Of a stretch of 64,000 nt of DNA, positions 1 through 10,653 are shown one piece after another. The notes under the pieces are model-generated. The model made no database searches. It was not told where the DNA came from and was given only the letters and a program-made list of their open reading frames with translations. Origin of the DNA: a phage; the sequence record PZ347661.1; one strand, written 5' to 3'. How positions within the stretch are numbered: the first letter of the stretch is position 1; each line of letters opens with the position of its first letter. Both the position numbers and the translations under genes were made by a program.

Positions 1-34
1 GTGAGGGCTTTCTTGTATATATAGGAGAGTAAAA

Positions 35-349
35 ATGACCCAGAAATTACGTGTATGGCACATCCCCCAAGTGCCAATGAAGGCATTTCATGTAGAGACT
101 GATAGTCTTCAGGAAGCTGTTAAGATTAAGAATGCGCTAGCAGACTACGATCTATTCCAATATGAGAACAACGTCAAAGGCGATTATGCTAATGCTAACG
201 GTATTGAGATGTGGGATGAGTCCCTCACTGACCAAGACCTTATTGATATGGAATTGGATGACCGTTGGGTAGATTGGTATATTGAAACTGAAGAATATTT
301 CTTTGATGACCCAGAAGAGTATCTGAATTATCTAGCCAAGCAAGTATGA
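35..349 (+). CDS. hypothetical strongly acidic small protein
   Basis: 104-aa ORF; roughly 24 Asp/Glu against about 8 basic residues; terminator immediately downstream. Confidence 0.45.
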   Translation: MTQKLRVWHIPQVPMKAFHVETDSLQEAVKIKNALADYDLFQYENNVKGDYANANGIEMWDESLTDQDLIDMELDDRWVDWYIETEEYFFDDPEEYLNYLAKQV

Positions 350-395
350 TTGCTTTATTTGGGGCTATAAACCCTGAAATAAAACCCTCAAGTTT

Positions 396-425
396 GACCT
401 CCCTATTGAAGGGAGGTCTTTTTTT
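396..425 (+). terminator. rho-independent terminator
   Basis: GACCTCCC-tattgaa-GGGAGGTC stem-loop followed by a T7 run. Confidence 0.7.
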
Positions 426-450
426 GACTTAAACATCCTGGAGCCAGGAA

Positions 451-639
451 ATGTATAAAGAGATTGCATTTTTCTCATTCTTACTTGGTGGTTTAATAGG
501 TGCAGGAATTGTAGCTATTTCTAATACCTACTTTGGTTCTACTCCAAACTCTCTAACACAAACCCTCAAGCATGAATGTGAATTGAATATCCCTCGTAAT
601 CAAAACTGTGTAATGCAGTTCGTACCGGAGAAAAAATGA
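451..639 (+). CDS. small membrane protein (hypothetical)
   Basis: 62-aa ORF with one hydrophobic helix IAFFSFLLGGLIGAGIVAI. Confidence 0.35.
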   Translation: MYKEIAFFSFLLGGLIGAGIVAISNTYFGSTPNSLTQTLKHECELNIPRNQNCVMQFVPEKK

Positions 640-896
640 ATATTCATAACCTACGTTTGGTTGAAAAACTGTATGAAGAATACAACGACAACCGGCAGCA
701 ATTAGCTAGTTTGAAGAAGTCACCACATATGGTGAAAGTATCATTCAATGATACGGATTTAGGACTACAAGCCCGTACAAGAATACTTCCTGAACTACTG
801 TCCTTTTATCAAAAGAGGATTGCTGTTTTAGAAAAACGCTTTGAGCATTTAGGCGTAGATTTATCACCACTCCCAGATGAAGGAGAAGAAGAGTGA
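636..896 (+). CDS. hypothetical protein
   Basis: 86-aa ORF, start overlaps upstream stop, same-strand operon context. Confidence 0.4.
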   Translation: MNIHNLRLVEKLYEEYNDNRQQLASLKKSPHMVKVSFNDTDLGLQARTRILPELLSFYQKRIAVLEKRFEHLGVDLSPLPDEGEEE

Positions 897-1102
897 AAGT
901 AACAAATCGTTCTGAGAACAATGAGGTAACTTTCGGTGATGTAGAGCCTGCTAATGGTTTTATTTATAACCAGACAGTGTGTCTAAAGATTCACTTACCT
1001 GAAGGTAAACCTGCTGCTGTTGCTGTAGAAACTGGCAAATCATTCTATCTATCAGCAAATACATATGTAACACCAATAAACCTGGAAGGATATTACCTTT
1101 GA
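893..1102 (+). CDS. hypothetical protein
   Basis: 69-aa ORF, 4-nt overlap with upstream gene. Confidence 0.35.
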   Translation: MKVTNRSENNEVTFGDVEPANGFIYNQTVCLKIHLPEGKPAAVAVETGKSFYLSANTYVTPINLEGYYL

Positions 1103-1284
1103 AACTTACCCAGTCCCAAGCAATCTTCCTTCGTATGGTTCAAGGTGGTTCTGCCACCAGCAACCGTAATAACAAAACCGCACAGTCTCTTAAGAAGCTG
1201 GGCTTAGTACAGTTCAATACTGGTCTTGGGTGGTCATTAACCCCTATCGGTGTACTTCAACTTAACGAAATGAAAGGTAACTAA
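1099..1284 (+). CDS. hypothetical protein
   Basis: 61-aa ORF, 4-nt overlap with upstream gene. Confidence 0.35.
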   Translation: MKLTQSQAIFLRMVQGGSATSNRNNKTAQSLKKLGLVQFNTGLGWSLTPIGVLQLNEMKGN

Positions 1285-1614
1285 ATGAAAACTTTACTTA
1301 AAGGTATTGCAGTAGCCGCACTGATAGCTTTGGCCCCAAGTGCACAAGCAATTGAACCAGAACCAATTCTGGAAGGTGCTCAGGCTTATCTGGATGACAC
1401 CCGTGATGCGTTCGGGCAAGGATTCTTCATGGGCAGTATGATCTCTTATATCGAGAGTACAAATAATTGCGTTCCTGAAGGTGTTAAGTATTCAGTCATT
1501 CTGCCTAAGATTGTCAAAGTAGTTATTTATGACTCTGCAATTCTCAAATTGAAGAATACATCTCAAATTGTTGTGTACTCAGTACACAAGGCATATCCCT
1601 GCACTAAATCTTAA
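1285..1614 (+). CDS. secreted/periplasmic small protein (signal peptide)
   Basis: N-terminus MKTLLKGIAVAALIALAPSAQA has n/h/c regions and an AQA-I cleavage-like site; 109 aa. Confidence 0.45.
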   Translation: MKTLLKGIAVAALIALAPSAQAIEPEPILEGAQAYLDDTRDAFGQGFFMGSMISYIESTNNCVPEGVKYSVILPKIVKVVIYDSAILKLKNTSQIVVYSVHKAYPCTKS

Positions 1615-1648
1615 TCAGTAATTCCATTAGCTTTAGGAGAGTAAGTAA

Positions 1649-2701
1649 ATGGCAAGCATTGACTCCTTGACTGTATGTAATTCACGTCAAGCTCGTAACT
1701 TTATTATCCGTGCCCTGAAAGCAGGTAACGTACCATTCCTGACTTCATCACCGGGCATGGGTAAATCTGCAATCATTCGTTCTATTGCAGAAGAATTTGG
1801 TATGAAGCTGATAGACCATCGTCTGTCTACTTCTGCTCCAGAAGACCTTTCTGGCTTACCATTCCGCAATGGTGACCGTGCAGAGTTTATCCCATTCGCT
1901 GACTTATTTCCTATTGAAGGGGATGCTGTACCGAAGGGTTATAATGGCTGGCTCCTGTTCCTCGATGAGTTCAACTCAGCTAAGAAAGAAGTAGTAGCTG
2001 CTGCATACAAACTGATTCTCGACCGTATGACTGGTCAGAAAAAACTACATCCTAATGTGATGATTGTCTGTGCAGGTAACAAAGCTACTGACCGTGCCAT
2101 TGTTAACCCACTGGGTACTGCAATGCAGTCCCGTGTGGTTCACTTCGAAATGGAACTTAACTTCGACATCTTTGTTGAAGACGTAATGATTCCTCAGCAA
2201 TGGGATGAACGTCTGGTTGCATTCTTACATGCTAACCCCGGTTACCTGCATGACTTCGACCCGGCACATAAGAACAAAACATTCTGTTGTCCTCGTACCT
2301 GGGACTTTGTTAACAAAGACCTCAAGAACTTGCCAGAAGGTGCTCTGCCTGATGAAGATTCTATCTACTATGCAGGTCACGTTACTGCTGGTAAGGCTAC
2401 AGAATTTGTTCAGTTTACCCAGGTGTACAATCGTATCATTACGATTGAGAAGGTAGTCAAAGACCCACTGGGCTGTGCACTACCGGATGATAACAACCTG
2501 TGTTGGGCTACTGTTAACCATCTGGCTAACAAAACTACTGAAGAGAACTTTGTTGATGTTCTTCGGTATATTGAACGCTTTAAAACGTTCACCCATAGGA
2601 TTCTATACTTCCGTACAGTAGGCAATGCATTACCAGATCTTCAGGCTACCCCTGAATGGCGTAAGGCTGCTGCTAATATCTCTCGCTACATTCACGGATA
2701 A
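1649..2701 (+). CDS. MoxR-like AAA+ ATPase
   Basis: Walker A SPGMGKSAI, Walker B LLFLDEFN, MoxR/AAA_5-like length of 350 aa. Confidence 0.75.
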   Translation: MASIDSLTVCNSRQARNFIIRALKAGNVPFLTSSPGMGKSAIIRSIAEEFGMKLIDHRLSTSAPEDLSGLPFRNGDRAEFIPFADLFPIEGDAVPKGYNGWLLFLDEFNSAKKEVVAAAYKLILDRMTGQKKLHPNVMIVCAGNKATDRAIVNPLGTAMQSRVVHFEMELNFDIFVEDVMIPQQWDERLVAFLHANPGYLHDFDPAHKNKTFCCPRTWDFVNKDLKNLPEGALPDEDSIYYAGHVTAGKATEFVQFTQVYNRIITIEKVVKDPLGCALPDDNNLCWATVNHLANKTTEENFVDVLRYIERFKTFTHRILYFRTVGNALPDLQATPEWRKAAANISRYIHG

Positions 2702-2708
2702 TCACAAC

Positions 2709-3884
2709 ATGAACCAATTTCCTCAGCACACACTTAGTGATGAACAACTCATGCGTGAGTATGACCGTATTCAGGCCCAAGCCTTCCTGGGCAAGTCTGC
2801 TGCGTTCTTTGGTTCATTACTGTGTAGTCTTAAATTCTCATGGAAACGTGAGGATTGTCCCACTGCATGTACTGATGGGATAGAACTTCATTTCAACCCA
2901 GACTTCTTTATCTGGATGTGTCCAGATGTAAGAGAAACAGTATTAATGCACGAACTATGGCATGTAGCATATCTACATGACATCCGTCGTGGAAGCCGTG
3001 ACCCGGAAGTCTGGAACCAGGCATGTGACCACTTCATTAACCTTCAGTTAGAAGAGGATGGTTACAAGTTCACTGGTATCGACAAGGGCATTTGCAAAGA
3101 CCCTAAATATAAAGATTGGGTCGAAGAAGACATCTACGATGACCTGATGAAGAACCCTCAGAAAAGGCAGAAGCCGTCAGGGGGTGCTGGAGCAGGTCTT
3201 GCTGGCGACATGAAATCCCCTACTTCGGGGCAGTCCCAGGGTGCTGTCGTCAACAACGTAGTACGTGCAATGCAGAGCCAGAAGATGGCTGGTGGACAGA
3301 TGCCCGGTAAGGGTGCTGGTCGTATGGAAGAGGTTATTACCCAATTCCTTAAACCAGTAGTTCCCTGGCAGGAAGTTCTGATAAACTTCTTTACCGACAT
3401 TGATGACACCCATTATACGTGGGCCAGACCTAATCGTCGTTACACTGACATCTATCTACCTTCCATGGAAGATGATGAAGGACGCTTACGACACTTAGCC
3501 TACTTTGAGGATGTATCTGGTTCCATTAGTAGTGATGACTCTCTGCGTTTTAACTCAGAGGTTGCTTACGTTAAGAGCCAATTCAATCCTAAGAAGATGT
3601 CCTTAATTACCTTCGACGATGTTATCCAGGAAGAAATAGACATCACTGAAGAAGATACTTTCGAAGAGATTAAGATTACTGGTCGTGGTGGTACAAACCT
3701 GGAACCAGTACGCGAATGGATTATTAAGAATAAGCCAACCGCTGCAATCATATTCTCCGATATGTATGTTCGCCCAATGGAAGAATTACCATTTGATATC
3801 CCCATCATCTGGTGTGTTCTGAATAATCCCAATGCTACCGTACCTTTTGGGGAGGTAGTTCATATCCCTAAAGGAATGAAATAA
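2709..3884 (+). CDS. VWA-like protein with N-terminal HExxH (putative metallopeptidase-like) domain
   Basis: HELWH motif near N-terminus, Gly-rich linker, C-terminal VWA-like region; directly follows the MoxR ATPase; start moved to ATG 2709 to avoid overlap. Confidence 0.55.
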   Translation: MNQFPQHTLSDEQLMREYDRIQAQAFLGKSAAFFGSLLCSLKFSWKREDCPTACTDGIELHFNPDFFIWMCPDVRETVLMHELWHVAYLHDIRRGSRDPEVWNQACDHFINLQLEEDGYKFTGIDKGICKDPKYKDWVEEDIYDDLMKNPQKRQKPSGGAGAGLAGDMKSPTSGQSQGAVVNNVVRAMQSQKMAGGQMPGKGAGRMEEVITQFLKPVVPWQEVLINFFTDIDDTHYTWARPNRRYTDIYLPSMEDDEGRLRHLAYFEDVSGSISSDDSLRFNSEVAYVKSQFNPKKMSLITFDDVIQEEIDITEEDTFEEIKITGRGGTNLEPVREWIIKNKPTAAIIFSDMYVRPMEELPFDIPIIWCVLNNPNATVPFGEVVHIPKGMK

Positions 3885-4390
3885 TGGTTGTTAACGGTAA
3901 TTCTCTATATCGTTCCTCTCAGTTGCTGGATGTTCCAGACCATAAGGTATCTGAACACGGTGTAAGCTATGGATTAGGTGAAGCTGGTTATGATATTCGT
4001 ATCAAACAAGATATTACCTTCTATCGCTTATTTGGGTTGATTCCAATGGTGAAGGTCGTTGATGGAAATCAAGTATCACGCCATCTCGGTAAGTTCACAT
4101 TGGCTTCAGCAATTGAGAAGTTCAACATGTCCCCATCCTGTGTAGCTATCGTTCACGATAAGTCTACCTGGGCAAGACGTGCATTATCTGTGTTCAATAC
4201 CGTAATAGAACCAGGATGGAAAGGGTATCTTACCCTCGAACTGGTCTATCATGGTCGCAAGAAATTGCATATCCCAGCTGGTTCTGGGATAGCTCAAGTA
4301 TTATTTCATCTGGTTCAGGAACCTGCTAATTACAATGGCAAGTATATGAACCAGGAAAACAAACCAGTAGCTGCAAGAAGCAGCAAATAA
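3884..4390 (+). CDS. dCTP deaminase / dUTPase-superfamily protein
   Basis: Motifs NTVIEPGWKGYLTLEL and IAQVLFHLV...NYNGKYMNQ typical of the Dcd/dUTPase fold. Confidence 0.65.
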   Translation: MVVNGNSLYRSSQLLDVPDHKVSEHGVSYGLGEAGYDIRIKQDITFYRLFGLIPMVKVVDGNQVSRHLGKFTLASAIEKFNMSPSCVAIVHDKSTWARRALSVFNTVIEPGWKGYLTLELVYHGRKKLHIPAGSGIAQVLFHLVQEPANYNGKYMNQENKPVAARSSK

Positions 4391-4399
4391 GGAAACAAC

Positions 4400-4609
4400 A
4401 TGTCAGTATTTCAAGTAACTCATGCAACCTCAGATGTACGTTTAACCATTAATGCTGCAAATGTAATTGCAGTAGAACAGATTCCACAGTCTGACCATGC
4501 ACGCGTCATATTTGTAGATAATAACTATATAGAAACCAAAGAAACCTATCGTTCAGTACGCAATTACCTGAAGAAAGCTCTTGCTCCTGCAAGCAAAGAC
4601 GCTGAGTAA
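4400..4609 (+). CDS. hypothetical protein
   Basis: 69-aa ORF in operon context. Confidence 0.4.
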   Translation: MSVFQVTHATSDVRLTINAANVIAVEQIPQSDHARVIFVDNNYIETKETYRSVRNYLKKALAPASKDAE

Positions 4610-4682
4610 GTAGCTGCCTAAATAGCCCAACATAGTTGGGCTATTTGTGAAGAAACTAACTCAACCTCACATAGGAACCATC

Positions 4683-4925
4683 ATGGAATCTTTAGCAGCA
4701 ATCCTTGTTTTCTTATTCATATTGGCTGTATACCTTATCCCTACTATCATTGCTTTTTCACGAGGCCATGTCTCTAAGTGGGGCATTGGTGTACTCAATA
4801 TCGTATTAGGCTGGTCACTGGTATTCTGGGTAGTAGCACTGATTTGGTCACTGTCCAACAAAGGGCAGAACCAGGTTACAAATGTAACCGTTGTTCAAAC
4901 CAATGGTGGCAGTAAAACAGAGTAA
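4683..4925 (+). CDS. superinfection-immunity (Imm)-like two-TM membrane protein
   Basis: YLIPTIIAFSRGH...LNIVLGWSLVFWVVALIWSL resembles the Imm-family pattern; two TM helices; ATG 4683 chosen (GGA upstream). Confidence 0.5.
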   Translation: MESLAAILVFLFILAVYLIPTIIAFSRGHVSKWGIGVLNIVLGWSLVFWVVALIWSLSNKGQNQVTNVTVVQTNGGSKTE

Positions 4926-4997
4926 CTAATCGTAATAGTCTCATGAGGCTATTACTGGAAGTTACTTCCAGCTCATTGCTTATCCATCTCCTAATCC

Positions 4998-5026
4998 AAG
5001 CCCACCTAACCCGTGGGCTTTTTTAA
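4998..5026 (+). terminator. rho-independent terminator
   Basis: AAGCCCAC-ctaaccc-GTGGGCTT followed by TTTTTTAATT. Confidence 0.7.
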
Positions 5027-5040
5027 TTACAGGTACTCTT

Positions 5041-5421
5041 ATGTCAAACAGACGAAATGGTAAGTCTATCCTGCAAGGACTGGACTTCAGTAAGCTGGAA
5101 CAAACTGCAATGCTTGCTTTAGGTAAAACTATCCATGACCAAGTGGAGAGTAAAATTGAATTAGATCTTTATGCAACAATGCAGACTCTTATTCAGAAAA
5201 AATGGATTACTAGCAGACTTTTTCCTTCATACATTCCCCCAGAACCTCATCTGAAATCTAAGGTAGACCGAATCATAGATAAGTTCTGGCTTAACCCATA
5301 CGGGGATGATATGCAACTTTATCTGACTCAAATACAAAAGAATCCTCATACTAAGGATGTGTTCAAGGGTAAAAGTACTACCCATCACTACCCCTGGTAT
5401 AGAAGAGGTAGTAAATACTAA
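5041..5421 (+). CDS. hypothetical protein
   Basis: 126-aa ORF after terminator. Confidence 0.4.
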   Translation: MSNRRNGKSILQGLDFSKLEQTAMLALGKTIHDQVESKIELDLYATMQTLIQKKWITSRLFPSYIPPEPHLKSKVDRIIDKFWLNPYGDDMQLYLTQIQKNPHTKDVFKGKSTTHHYPWYRRGSKY

Positions 5422-5864
5422 TGCGTATCCCATTCCTAAGAAAAAGGGAACGAAATCCTGTTCTTTATAATAAAGGCATAGAGGATGAGTATGCACTCAA
5501 CAGTAAAGCTCGTTCCTACACAACAAAATTATTTATGGGGACTAAAAACCCTGATAGATTACTGGACTTTGTTTTTGAACAAGTCTTTATCATATACAGC
5601 TTAGCTATGACTGCTGGTTCACAAGAAGTAAGTGATAAGGCAAGAGATGCTCTCTGTATGCTCCGTAAAGAGTATGAAGCCCTCATGTATGAAGACTTGT
5701 ACTCCTTTAAAAAAGAAACCGCTGTAGCGTGTTCTGTGGCTCTTACTGAAGGTGTAGCAGTATTACAAGAACTACCTCGTAGTGAGTTTAAGCTGGTATA
5801 TGTTCAGGTTAAGAGAATCACAGAGACTAGAAGTGGTATCACCAACTATCTAAGGTCATTCTAA
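5421..5864 (+). CDS. hypothetical protein
   Basis: 147-aa ORF, start overlaps upstream stop. Confidence 0.4.
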   Translation: MRIPFLRKRERNPVLYNKGIEDEYALNSKARSYTTKLFMGTKNPDRLLDFVFEQVFIIYSLAMTAGSQEVSDKARDALCMLRKEYEALMYEDLYSFKKETAVACSVALTEGVAVLQELPRSEFKLVYVQVKRITETRSGITNYLRSF

Positions 5865-6808
5865 TGATTAAGGCATCAGTAATTGCAGATTCTGTTCATC
5901 CAGAAACAGGAACTCGTATAACAACCTTTGAATTGGTTTATCCCCGATTCATTCACAGTGAGTTTATGACTCACCGTGTATTCAACCGTAATGCTTCGAG
6001 CAGTCGTGCTATTCCTACCTCTAAGCTTATCGAACAGGTTCGTAATGAACCAGTGATGCCAAGTCACTGGGGCAAGAACCAGAAAGGTATGCAAGCAGAG
6101 GAAGAACTCACTCCTATGGAGATTGGGGATGCCAAGTTTATCTGGGATAACGCTGCATCTGCTGCTGCTGTGTACGCTGAACAACTACGCCGTGGTCAGG
6201 TACATAAGCAGATTGTTAACCGTATTCTGGAACCCTTCACGCATATTCGTGTAGTGGTAACTTCAACTAGCTGGGCTAATTTCTATGGACTGCGTGACCA
6301 CAAAGATGCACAACCAGAGATTCGTGAACTGGCTCAAGCAATGCGTAAGGCACATGAAGAAAGCACACCAAGAGCACTATCATATGGGCAATGGCATATG
6401 CCGTACATTACTCATATTGATCGTGTTGGGGCTTACAATTTCTGCAAACGCAATCGAGTTACACGCGATGAACCAAGTGATGCAGAAGTACATGGACTAC
6501 TTCTTAAAGTAAGTGCTGCACGCTGTGCTCGTGCTTCCTATAACAACTTTGAAGGGCGACCTTCTACTATCGAAGAAGACCTTGGCTTATTTGCTAAGTT
6601 AGTGGAAAACCAACCTATTCATGCTTCTCCAACGGAACATCAAGCTACGCCTATGAACCTTAGTGAGAAGTACGTGAATAACATGAACCCAGTTACATGG
6701 GAACAAGGTGTTACATCCATGGATAAAGAAGGGAATCTGTACTCAGGTAACCTGCTTCACTTTATCCAATTCCGTAAATTAATTCCTGGTGAGACTATTA
6801 CTGAATGA
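5864..6808 (+). CDS. thyX: flavin-dependent thymidylate synthase ThyX
   Basis: ThyX signature region THRVFNRNASSSR (RHR-x7-S-x-R-like); 314 aa. Confidence 0.7.
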   Translation: MIKASVIADSVHPETGTRITTFELVYPRFIHSEFMTHRVFNRNASSSRAIPTSKLIEQVRNEPVMPSHWGKNQKGMQAEEELTPMEIGDAKFIWDNAASAAAVYAEQLRRGQVHKQIVNRILEPFTHIRVVVTSTSWANFYGLRDHKDAQPEIRELAQAMRKAHEESTPRALSYGQWHMPYITHIDRVGAYNFCKRNRVTRDEPSDAEVHGLLLKVSAARCARASYNNFEGRPSTIEEDLGLFAKLVENQPIHASPTEHQATPMNLSEKYVNNMNPVTWEQGVTSMDKEGNLYSGNLLHFIQFRKLIPGETITE

Positions 6809-8088: not shown

Positions 8089-10653
8089 ATGTTAGTTGCA
8101 GATACTAATGAAGTAGCTACCTCAGCGACACTGGGTGGCAAAGAAACAATTGCCTTTGGCATCTCTGATGACCCGGCATTCTTCCATGTATTAAGTACTT
8201 CTCTGTATAACAATCCTACTCTGGCAGTAGTCCGTGAGACTATCTGTAACAGTTGGGATGCTCATATTGAAGCAGGTAAGACTAATACTCCTATTCGTAT
8301 CACCATTGATACAGACAACTTTATTACCTTCCGTGACTACGGTAACGGTATCCCAGATGAACTCATTGGTTCCATTTATGGTGTCTATGGTGCATCTACT
8401 AAGAAAGCCAACAGTAGTGTTACTGGTGGCTTTGGTCTGGGATGTAAATCCCCATTCGCTTATACGGATAGCTTCCAGGTTACTTCATGGAACCAGGGAA
8501 AGATGTCGGTATACAACGTAGCTAAGGCTGCGATTGAGAATGATGGTAAGCCAGGTATTGTTCCTATTGTTACTGGTATTCCTACTGAGGAATCTGGTCT
8601 GGAAGTTAAATTCCAGTTAGGCAAACATGATTTAAATACCTTTATTCATTACATCAAATCAATCGTGTTTAACGGTGAGATTAAAGCTGAGCTAAGTACC
8701 ACTAAACTCGTTAAAACAGAAGAGGGCATTAGTATTCAGCAAGGTGACTACACTCTACTGAATACATTGGGTATGTCATTTGAACCCGGTTCGTATGATA
8801 TGTCTGATAGCTGGTATCAGGGTTATATGGGTAACAGTAACATTTTCGTTCGTTACGGCAACGTAATGTACCCAATTGTATCCAGTCCTGCTAGTGAAGA
8901 AGCTGTAGGTCTTATTCTCAACTTTATGAATATCATTGGTGCTTCTAATTTAGTAGTTCAAGCTGCACCAGATACTCTGGCTATTGCTCCTAGTCGAGAA
9001 ACTCTGTCTAACCAGAAGTTAACCGACGATGGTATTACTACTCTATGTGTAGATTTAGTAGACCGTATGGAGAAAGAGATTAAGGCTAAAATTCCTGAAG
9101 CTATTAAGCAGGTTGAAGAATTCGCCTCTAAATCCTCTACTCGCTTTTGGGAATATCCTTCTTTCCTGTCTGCTGTTACAAACCCAATTGTTCAACGTTA
9201 TATGTCTTCTAGTTTGTGGGCTAAGCAACGTAAGCATCACATCAAGCACTGGCGTAACCTATCCAATAAAGCATTACTAGCTCGTCCTGAATATGCAGGT
9301 CTTAAGAAGCTGTATGGTAAAGCTATACGTGCTCTTAAGCATACGCGTACAGACAGCACCTATTTATTCCAGGATTTAGTATACCGTCACCTACACTTAC
9401 CCCAACTTGCTGCTCTAAAGGCTACTGGTATTAAGTGGTCTGGTTACATAGTGAACCAGGGTAGCTGTGTTGACTTAGTAAAAGGTAAGCTTACTGATTA
9501 CTTTAAGATGACTCATCTTAGTCATTTAGGTATCGGCATATTCACTACCAAGAACGTTGTAGTTACCCGACGTTTATCTGATTGTGCAGACTCTTTCTCA
9601 TACTTCCCTGAGTACAACCGAGGTGACTTGGAGCGTACAGCTTTTGTTCATGTCGTTGGTCCTAAGAAGGGTGCAGCAGAGGAAGCTGTAGCTAAGTTTA
9701 CTGTTATGGGTTATCGGGTAATTGACCTTACTCAATATAATGAGTGGGACAAACCAACTAACTTCCGTAGAGAACAAGCTAAGATGGCTGCTGAAAAACG
9801 GGCTAAGACAATAGCTGCCAATAAAACCAAAGCAGGAGGTAAAACCAATGCTCTGATTTCATTGAATGCAGTTCTTGATACTACCCGGGTACGGAATAAA
9901 AATGGTGATTGGGAACCCAAGCCCTATATCCAGAAGGAATTTGCTGACCCAAGTCGCCATGAGAAGTACGGTTTCGTTGAAGTGGAGCAACCTAAGTACT
10001 ACGTACTAGCCAATCAGGTTGGTTCAGGTAGCCCAGTAACAGCCAGTATTGGAACCATGTGGAAATGGTATGAGTTGTCCGATGAGATGAAAGCAGAGAC
10101 TGTTGTCTGCCGTAATCAAATCGAAGCTAACAAGGCCAAGCGACGTGGTGCTATCCACATTGATGATGTTCGCTTTATGGAACTGATGCCCGTAATTACT
10201 AGTAAAGGCTTCAAGAAGTATGTTACTGAACATCGCATCGGTATTCTGGAATACGTAGGACTGGATGACAGGGAATACTGGGAAATTCTAGACATACTGG
10301 GTCTAACCTTCAAACCATTACAGAATCTGATTTTTAAACCAGAGTATGAGTGGGCATATGACTTTCTACGGAATCGACCACATGACAACAAAGAAAAACT
10401 TGTTGAAATGGGTTGTATTAAGTCAGTGAGTGACTTAGAACCATATACAAAACTGGTTAATCCCCGTAATCATAAGTACTTTAAAATACTTAATGATTAC
10501 AAAGAATTATTCAGTTATAGCTGGGCTAAAAATGACATCCTACAGACGCTGGACTTAGGTAGTTTGGTCAAACACCTTAAGAAGAATCCAGAGGATATTC
10601 CTGGGTTTAAGTCCCTCTACCGTAATCGTCTAAATAAACTGAAAGGTAACTAA
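8089..10653 (+). CDS. rIIA: rIIA-like protein (GHKL-type ATPase N-domain)
   Basis: N-terminal Bergerat-fold motifs ETICNSWDA, RDYGNGIP and GGFGLGCKSPF; 854 aa; followed by rIIB-sized partner. Confidence 0.6.
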   Translation: MLVADTNEVATSATLGGKETIAFGISDDPAFFHVLSTSLYNNPTLAVVRETICNSWDAHIEAGKTNTPIRITIDTDNFITFRDYGNGIPDELIGSIYGVYGASTKKANSSVTGGFGLGCKSPFAYTDSFQVTSWNQGKMSVYNVAKAAIENDGKPGIVPIVTGIPTEESGLEVKFQLGKHDLNTFIHYIKSIVFNGEIKAELSTTKLVKTEEGISIQQGDYTLLNTLGMSFEPGSYDMSDSWYQGYMGNSNIFVRYGNVMYPIVSSPASEEAVGLILNFMNIIGASNLVVQAAPDTLAIAPSRETLSNQKLTDDGITTLCVDLVDRMEKEIKAKIPEAIKQVEEFASKSSTRFWEYPSFLSAVTNPIVQRYMSSSLWAKQRKHHIKHWRNLSNKALLARPEYAGLKKLYGKAIRALKHTRTDSTYLFQDLVYRHLHLPQLAALKATGIKWSGYIVNQGSCVDLVKGKLTDYFKMTHLSHLGIGIFTTKNVVVTRRLSDCADSFSYFPEYNRGDLERTAFVHVVGPKKGAAEEAVAKFTVMGYRVIDLTQYNEWDKPTNFRREQAKMAAEKRAKTIAANKTKAGGKTNALISLNAVLDTTRVRNKNGDWEPKPYIQKEFADPSRHEKYGFVEVEQPKYYVLANQVGSGSPVTASIGTMWKWYELSDEMKAETVVCRNQIEANKAKRRGAIHIDDVRFMELMPVITSKGFKKYVTEHRIGILEYVGLDDREYWEILDILGLTFKPLQNLIFKPEYEWAYDFLRNRPHDNKEKLVEMGCIKSVSDLEPYTKLVNPRNHKYFKILNDYKELFSYSWAKNDILQTLDLGSLVKHLKKNPEDIPGFKSLYRNRLNKLKGN

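Follow-up and report, generated by a model that had tools for sequence, protein, structure and literature searches.

An N4-like coliphage gene pair encodes an AAA+ ATPase related to the MoxR family and a VWA partner with a putative metallopeptidase domain

In the characterised MoxR-VWA systems, the metal ion-dependent adhesion site (MIDAS) of the VWA protein takes hold of a client by a peptide or an acidic residue, and a ring of AAA+ ATPase subunits remodels that client with ATP (PMC7159879, PMC3893208). A viral example is found in Acidianus two-tailed virus (ATV), where the MoxR-type protein p618 and the VWA protein p892 interact and p892 stimulates the ATPase activity of p618 (PMC4124505); p618 is a virion component and has been assigned to the RavA subfamily (PMC3893208). 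In N4-like phages, two genes have been described as 'putative ATPase, AAA superfamily' and 'vWFA super-family' (PMC2784036), and gp24 and gp25 of N4 are counted among the 14 N4-like core genes, without an assigned function (PMC4193335, Table 3), and within the panproteome core of Schitoviridae, a proposed family (PMC7650795, Table 2). Here we analyse such a pair in sequence record PZ347661.1, a stretch of 64,000 nucleotides (hereafter the window) that comes from a G7C-type (Gamaleyavirus) N4-like coliphage. Its two open reading frames (ORFs) lie at the coordinates and on the strand given by a first-pass annotation of the window (1649-3884, + strand):

1649..2701, + strand: ATPase gene (ORF A), 350 aa, orthologue of N4 gp24 (from the ORF call, Pfam and PHROGs)
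2709..3884, + strand: zincin-like plus VWA gene (ORF B), 391 aa, orthologue of N4 gp25 (from Pfam DUF2201_N and DUF2201)

By sequence and gene order the pair are the orthologues of N4 gp24 and gp25, from which they differ in nothing essential: the ORF B product is 61% identical to N4 gp25 over 98% of its length, and N4 and the window share the gene order gp24-gp25-dCTP deaminase. At the DNA level the 2.2-kb segment that holds the pair is 93-95% identical to St11Ph5, ECBP1, IME11, PE007 and about 50 other records, with G7C also among the nearest relatives, and the ORF A product is 95% identical to Escherichia phage ATPases. The start of ORF B is placed at ATG 2709, eight nucleotides past the stop of ORF A, because all of the homologues (121/121) begin there and because the start at 2625 of the mechanically called frame (2625..3884), which we rejected, would place the first 77 nt of that frame within the ATPase gene.

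The gene pair itself is already known, having been catalogued among the N4-like core genes in papers from 2009 to 2020. What the present analysis adds is the exact conserved signature of the partner, support for its fold, the strictness of the pairing, the spread of the family to jumbo phages, conjugative plasmids and cyanobacteria, the intein and homing insertions in relatives, and the correction of a misannotation. Few genes are common to all N4-like phages, and these two are among them; what they do has long been a gap in the biology of N4, and the first-pass remark that their function in infection is unclear agrees with the published lists, in which they stand without one (PMC4193335, PMC2784036, PMC7650795). 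Literature searches on DUF2201, COG3864, Schitoviridae VWA/ATPase and N4 gp24/gp25 turned up no work on the function of any family member, the literature searched held no assay of a DUF2201_N protein, and the CRISPRi-ART paper has no data on these two genes.

Residues 17-253 of ORF B match DUF2201_N, described as a 'putative metallopeptidase domain' (E 5.7e-57), and residues 263-386 match DUF2201, a 'VWA-like domain' (E 8.1e-35). The first-pass annotation had read the locus as a MoxR-VWA pair whose partner carries a metallopeptidase-like HExxH motif, and profile searches recover all of the predicted domains, namely an AAA/AAA_5-like domain, DUF2201_N with its HExxH and the VWA-like DUF2201; the outcome that it had named as refuting, a lack of profile support for a VWA or HExxH domain, did not arise. 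The conserved elements of the partner, as judged from 121 phage homologues and from a wide-family alignment of 11 members at 23-29% identity (N4-like, jumbo and rV5-like phages, Burkholderia and Cupriavidus plasmids, cyanobacteria and a Rhodococcus plasmid), are as follows:

2949..2978, + strand: HELWHVAYLH, residues 81-90, an HExxHxxxxH motif with the putative zinc site and catalytic Glu
3012..3029, + strand: WNQACD, residues 102-107; N103, A105 and D107 invariant in the wide family, D107 a candidate third metal ligand
3123..3137, + strand: EEDIY, residues 139-143; E140 and Y143 invariant in the wide family
3426..3443, + strand: RPNRRY, residues 240-245, an Arg-Arg motif directly before the VWA domain; R243 and R244 invariant in the wide family
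3510..3524, + strand: DVSGS, residues 268-272, the DxSxS of the MIDAS
3681..3695, + strand: GRGGT, residues 325-329; G328 and T329 invariant, T329 the MIDAS threonine
3750..3761, + strand: IFSD, residues 348-351; D351 invariant, the MIDAS aspartate

The residues H81, E82 and H85 are invariant in all 121 phage homologues and, together with H90, across the phage, plasmid, cyanobacterial and actinobacterial members. The complete set of wide-family invariants is H81, E82, H85, H90, R93, N103, A105, D107, N111, E140, Y143, R243 and R244 plus all of the MIDAS residues, which gives the family the signature HExxHxxxxH, with NxAxDxxxN on the helix that comes after it. The HELWH string had been placed at the N-terminus of the protein; it is present and invariant, but it occupies residues 81-85 of 391 (window 2949-2963) and so sits inside the N-terminal domain and not at the N-terminus itself. 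Only two HExxH strings occur in the 25,793 residues of all six-frame window ORFs of at least 100 aa; with H81, E82 and H85 invariant in the 121 homologues, the motif is far beyond chance.

Structure models place the HExxH within a helix spanning residues 72-87 and the WNQACD motif on the helix that follows it (residues 99-116), and two invariant residues, H90 and D107, are candidates for the third metal ligand. By fold, the N-terminal domain is best matched by minimal zincins and M48/M56 peptidases (selecase, projannalysin, BlaR1 and Ste24/ZMPSTE24), with Wss1/Spartan/ArdC also among the matches; all of these share with it an HExxH helix and, after that, a helix with a further conserved acidic or His residue. 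A Foldseek search with the N-terminal domain returned nothing significant. When the PDB was searched by sequence with the partner, either singly or as a profile, the one match was a marginal one to an integrin I-domain at the MIDAS motif, and no family member with a solved structure was found. Y143 may serve as a transition-state-stabilising Tyr.

The C-terminal domain has the alpha/beta fold of VWA domains and a complete MIDAS, with D268, S270, S272, T329 and D351 invariant in the 121 phage homologues and in the 11 wide-family members. The window protein has no above-cut-off match to the canonical Pfam VWA families (PF00092/PF13519), only to DUF2201, and the homologue from jumbo phage K64-1 scores 21.8 bits against PF00092, under the cut-off of 23.8. 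By its profile matches, then, the VWA domain of the partner is that of a divergent VWA subfamily.

For the ATPase, conservation was assessed over 26 diverse homologues, down to 50% identity, and the elements expected of an active enzyme stand out:

1754..1768, + strand: Walker A (P-loop) GMGKS, residues 36-40; G38, K39 and S40 invariant
1961..1972, + strand: Walker B LDEF, residues 105-108; D106 and E107 invariant
2072..2080, + strand: sensor-1 candidate AGN, residues 142-144; A142, G143 and N144 invariant, the role being suggested by position in the AAA+ fold
2126..2134, + strand: QSR, residues 160-162; S161 and R162 invariant, R162 an arginine-finger candidate

The role proposed for R162 draws on what is known of the MoxR family (PMC7159879), and R216 is likewise invariant in the 26 homologues. 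Since the Walker A, Walker B, sensor-1 and arginine residues are all invariant, the phage ATPase should hydrolyse ATP. It matches phrog_1297 'ATPase' (E 6e-133) and passes the cut-off of the generic Pfam AAA family (27 bits against 21.2), which is the only such family it passes; among the MoxR-type families it stays under the cut-off of AAA_5 (18.8 bits against 22) and bpMoxR (13.5 against 27) and has no above-cut-off match to AAA_3. The name 'MoxR ATPase' used in the first-pass annotation thus stands for the family, as seen from AAA_5 and from the 'MoxR family ATPase' of the Synechocystis plasmid pSYSA (so called in its source record), and does not stand for the window protein by its own AAA_5 score. 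AAA_5 is matched at E<=0.01 by 16 of the 26 phage homologues, and its cut-off is passed by four of the five bacterial or plasmid orthologues tested (25-32 bits), one of which also passes AAA_3 (30.1 bits). Over most of their own length, the orthologues of pSYSA and of a Burkholderia plasmid share 29-32% identity with the phage ATPase. Membership in the MoxR/AAA_5 clade is accordingly supported by these profile scores at the family level, with the window protein alone below threshold.

The sole PDB sequence matches of the ATPase are to Midasin, in its AAA modules (E 8.6e-5 with the single sequence, 1.3e-5 with a profile). A conserved stretch of some 30 residues (STSAPEDLSGLP...AEFxPF) lies between the two Walker motifs and aligns in sequence to the same modules; it is a candidate for the helix-2 insert that marks the MoxR/dynein-midasin clade. 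NCBIfam has no match for either protein of the pair. Against PADLOC-DB 2.0 the VWA protein had no match, and the ATPase had one weak match only (DolB, E 0.006, 13.8 bits).

Further searches showed that the two genes are strictly paired. The ATPase gene lies upstream of the partner and on the same strand in 79/79 viral loci from IMG/VR, at a distance of -6 to 3642 nt (median about 74 nt), and the dCTP deaminase gene follows the pair in 59/75 viral loci; by these counts the link of the partner with the ATPase is the tighter one. The distribution takes in 711 phage records from several unrelated lineages and 102 plasmids, 59 of them conjugative or mobilizable. At E<=0.001 an exhaustive profile search with the partner identified 21,736 cluster representatives, of which the best 150 were listed; at E<=1e-30 it identified 5,304. 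In the 347-kb jumbo phage K64-1 the two genes are adjacent, after virion structural genes and near a thymidylate synthase. The rV5-like phages carry the partner with a MoxR ATPase about 3.6 kb away; the 'anti-sigma factor' beside an rV5-like partner homologue was considered and is not a relative of the ATPase.

Outside phages, the DUF2201_N plus DUF2201 proteins of bacteria and plasmids, such as Sll7028 of pSYSA, have the same architecture, the same invariant residues and a MoxR ATPase encoded upstream, the two genes overlapping in pSYSA. These loci differ from the phage pair in what they add. In a Burkholderia pseudomallei plasmid (L007, 4889-8158) and a Cupriavidus necator plasmid (L008, 4970-8251) the genes form a three-gene module, in which the ATPase is followed by a conserved ORF of about 300 aa without a Pfam match (56% identity between the two plasmids) and then by the zincin-VWA protein, and the Burkholderia module lies directly upstream of VirB11/VirB2/VirB3/VirB4-type genes of a type IV secretion system (T4SS). 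In cyanobacterial chromosomes and contigs (L093, L094, L096) the pair, conserved in this branch at 50-60% identity, is flanked by paralogous LRV/HEAT-like repeat proteins of 111 to 1290 aa, which may be a third component or the clients. Neither the LRV-repeat proteins nor the plasmid ORF of about 300 aa has a homologue among all of the window ORFs. The cyanobacterial loci also sit among HEPN/nucleotidyltransferase, GIY-YIG, HIRAN, CBASS-E2-like, Bro-N and RlaP genes.

The domain identities, the intact catalytic and MIDAS residues, the strict pairing and the wide spread over mobile elements and bacteria are shown directly. We suggest that the pair works as a machine driven by ATP, which captures and remodels one specific client protein and cuts it with a built-in zinc peptidase, a reading to which we give about an even chance. 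The gp24 orthologue would be a catalytically competent AAA+ ATPase of the MoxR clade, most likely forming a hexameric ring, and the gp25 orthologue would be its dedicated partner, complexed with it as one or a few copies docked on the ring. By analogy with Midasin, CbbQ-CbbO and NorQ-NorD, the MIDAS of the VWA domain would grip an acidic side chain or carboxylate of the client and couple it to the ATPase, and the zincin-like domain, with its HExxHxxxxH and NxAxD motifs, would cut the client so held, possibly only once ATP-driven remodelling has exposed the scissile segment. Because the pair would be made with the replication and nucleotide-metabolism (middle) genes, the client would be an intracellular protein of mid-infection, made either by the host or by an early gene of the phage. 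A bolder form of this proposal, which we think unlikely, would make the pair a universal 'establishment protease' for mobile DNA, common to N4-like phages, jumbo phages and conjugative megaplasmids, whose MIDAS clamp would seize one conserved host protein or a DNA-bound pilot protein and whose zincin domain would cut it, clearing the way for genome replication.

An active zincin domain would make the pair the first MoxR-VWA system to go beyond remodelling its client and cleave it. To our knowledge, the partners in Midasin/Rea1, CbbQ-CbbO, NorQ-NorD, BchI-BchD and RavA-ViaA are without a zincin-like peptidase domain, and these systems remodel their clients or load metals with no cleavage; their sequence similarity to the window pair is at the superfamily level only. 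The ATV pair is compared here at the family level, and differs in that it comes from an archaeal virus and has no reported peptidase domain. Complement factor B/C2 uses a VWA domain to tether a protease, an analogy of design only, as that protease is a serine protease, extracellular and without an ATPase, and the proteasome cap, with its trio of AAA ring, metalloprotease and VWA receptor, offers a purely conceptual analogy. The establishment-protease form, if true, would supply a function for two of the roughly 14 Schitoviridae core genes.

Several other readings of the pair have to be weighed against a client-cutting machine. All of the characterised pairs named in two papers (MoxR, NorQ/NorD, CoxD/CoxE, RavA/ViaA and the chelatases; PMC3893208, PMC7159879) act as non-proteolytic chaperones or metal-insertion systems, and the phage pair might do the same, maturing or activating one particular enzyme complex, such as an enzyme of nucleotide metabolism or replication from the phage or the host, with the HExxH as a metal- or peptide-binding module. 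The dCTP deaminase and ThyX genes near the phage pair, the thymidylate synthase near the K64-1 pair and the housekeeping-like conservation of the cyanobacterial branch are in keeping with such a role. The full peptidase signature, including Glu82 and the Tyr, is nevertheless invariant over great distances, which mere metal binding would not need, and the dCTP deaminase adjacency is lost in 16/75 viral loci and absent from the plasmid and cyanobacterial contexts, so that no candidate target enzyme travels with the pair; we regard this reading as rather unlikely. The ATV precedent, in which a viral MoxR-VWA pair takes part in tail development (PMC4124505, PMC3893208), raises the further thought of a chaperone for virion assembly, for instance in assembling or loading the giant virion RNA polymerase, and the K64-1 pair does follow virion structural genes. 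In N4-like phages, by contrast, the pair lies in the + strand replication and nucleotide block with the structural genes on the other strand, and plasmids and cyanobacterial chromosomes carry it without any virion genes, all of which makes this role very improbable.

A specific version of the capture-and-cut proposal would make the pair a device of counter-defence or host takeover, its client being a host protein, for instance one of immunity or one associated with DNA, whose removal is needed as foreign DNA becomes established. This would explain why the pair is shared by phages and plasmids, and it fits the Burkholderia plasmid copy beside T4SS genes, the bacterial copies amid toxin-antitoxin, HEPN, DUF262, HIRAN, CBASS-E2-like and Bro-N genes, and the weak fold likeness of the N-terminal domain to ArdC, Spartan and Wss1. 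It is harder to reconcile with a vertically inherited core pair of all N4-like phages on alpha-, beta- and gammaproteobacterial hosts (PMC4193335, PMC7650795), a strict core status unlike that of typical accessory anti-defence genes; PADLOC contributes only its single weak match, and the mobile-element neighbourhoods may merely mirror sampling. On balance we think it unlikely. As to the client-cutting machine in general, the invariant residues define targets for mutagenesis at the residue level (K39 in the ATPase; E82, D107 and D268 in the partner), and a pair that will not surprise the specialist is yet a well-defined and testable experimental target.

A widespread database name for the second gene is quite different. 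PHROGs (phrog_1314) and many RefSeq phage records label the partner 'HNH endonuclease', and these labels are all that speaks for that identity, which has virtually no chance of being right: no HNH family is matched at E<=0.1, DUF2201_N and DUF2201 together explain the whole length of the protein, and its folds are zincin-like and VWA. We reject the label, which these domain and fold results contradict, and suggest that this common annotation of gp25-type genes should be corrected. The error was probably seeded by true homing-endonuclease ORFs that lie beside or inside the pair in some relatives. In G7C a real HNH homing-endonuclease ORF stands between the two genes (L017, gap 483 nt). In PW8 and pSb-1 an insert of about 865 nt splits the ATPase gene after codon 67, between the PEDL and the SGLP of a conserved stretch (L001 1708-2569 in PW8, corresponding to window ~1849/1850), and the records annotate the ATPase as two separate fragments. 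The insert holds an HNH endonuclease ORF and an RNA resembling a group I intron (Rfam RF00028, 25.6 bits against a gathering score of 50, E 4.6e-4); in PW8 no splice junction fitting the U(-1)/terminal-G rule could be placed without the loss of one residue.

The partner gene has its own insertions. Two metagenomic homologues (P0244 and P0248) carry inteins, one a mini-intein and the other of about 300 aa, exactly between A105 and C106 of the WNxACD motif, a site equivalent to window 3023/3024. Inteins typically occupy functionally critical sites.

Among genome contigs, a scan with phage-specific peptide patterns returned five loci, all of them N4-like blocks; the scan did not sample the true bacterial relatives, which were reached through the plasmids and through a search seeded with the pSYSA protein. 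A Roseococcus metagenome-assembled genome (L003, a 296-kb contig) and Mesorhizobium yinganensis CN2-181 (L004, a 727-kb contig) have an ATPase-zincin/VWA-dCTP deaminase block inside the contig, at 44-59% protein identity to the window, with ThyX present as well in the Roseococcus contig. These blocks could be an integrated or carried N4-like element or an assembly artefact. Such an element would be unusual for the strictly lytic N4-like family.

In the window the pair is followed by the usual N4-like replication and nucleotide-metabolism block, the stop codon of ORF B and the dCTP deaminase ATG sharing one base, and a terminator-like hairpin lies on either side of the unit:

396..418, + strand: terminator-like hairpin upstream of the unit, 9-bp stem with 6 G-C pairs and a T run (pattern match only)
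3884-4390: dCTP deaminase/dUTPase-fold protein, downstream neighbour of the pair
4998..5020, + strand: terminator-like hairpin downstream of the unit, 8-bp stem with 5 G-C pairs and a T run (pattern match only)
5864-6808: ThyX-type thymidylate synthase, downstream neighbour of the pair
8089-10653: rIIA homologue with a GHKL ATPase domain, downstream neighbour of the pair

The two hairpins enclose a unit of about 4.6 kb with small ORFs and the ATPase, zincin-VWA and dCTP deaminase genes, the downstream hairpin coming after the dCTP deaminase gene and further small ORFs. The placement of the pair among the middle genes is suggested by synteny with gp24-gp25-dCTP deaminase of N4. Sigma-70-like promoter matches in window positions 1-6000 are rarer than in shuffled sequence (5 against 14.8), a scarcity that is consistent with transcription by a phage polymerase.

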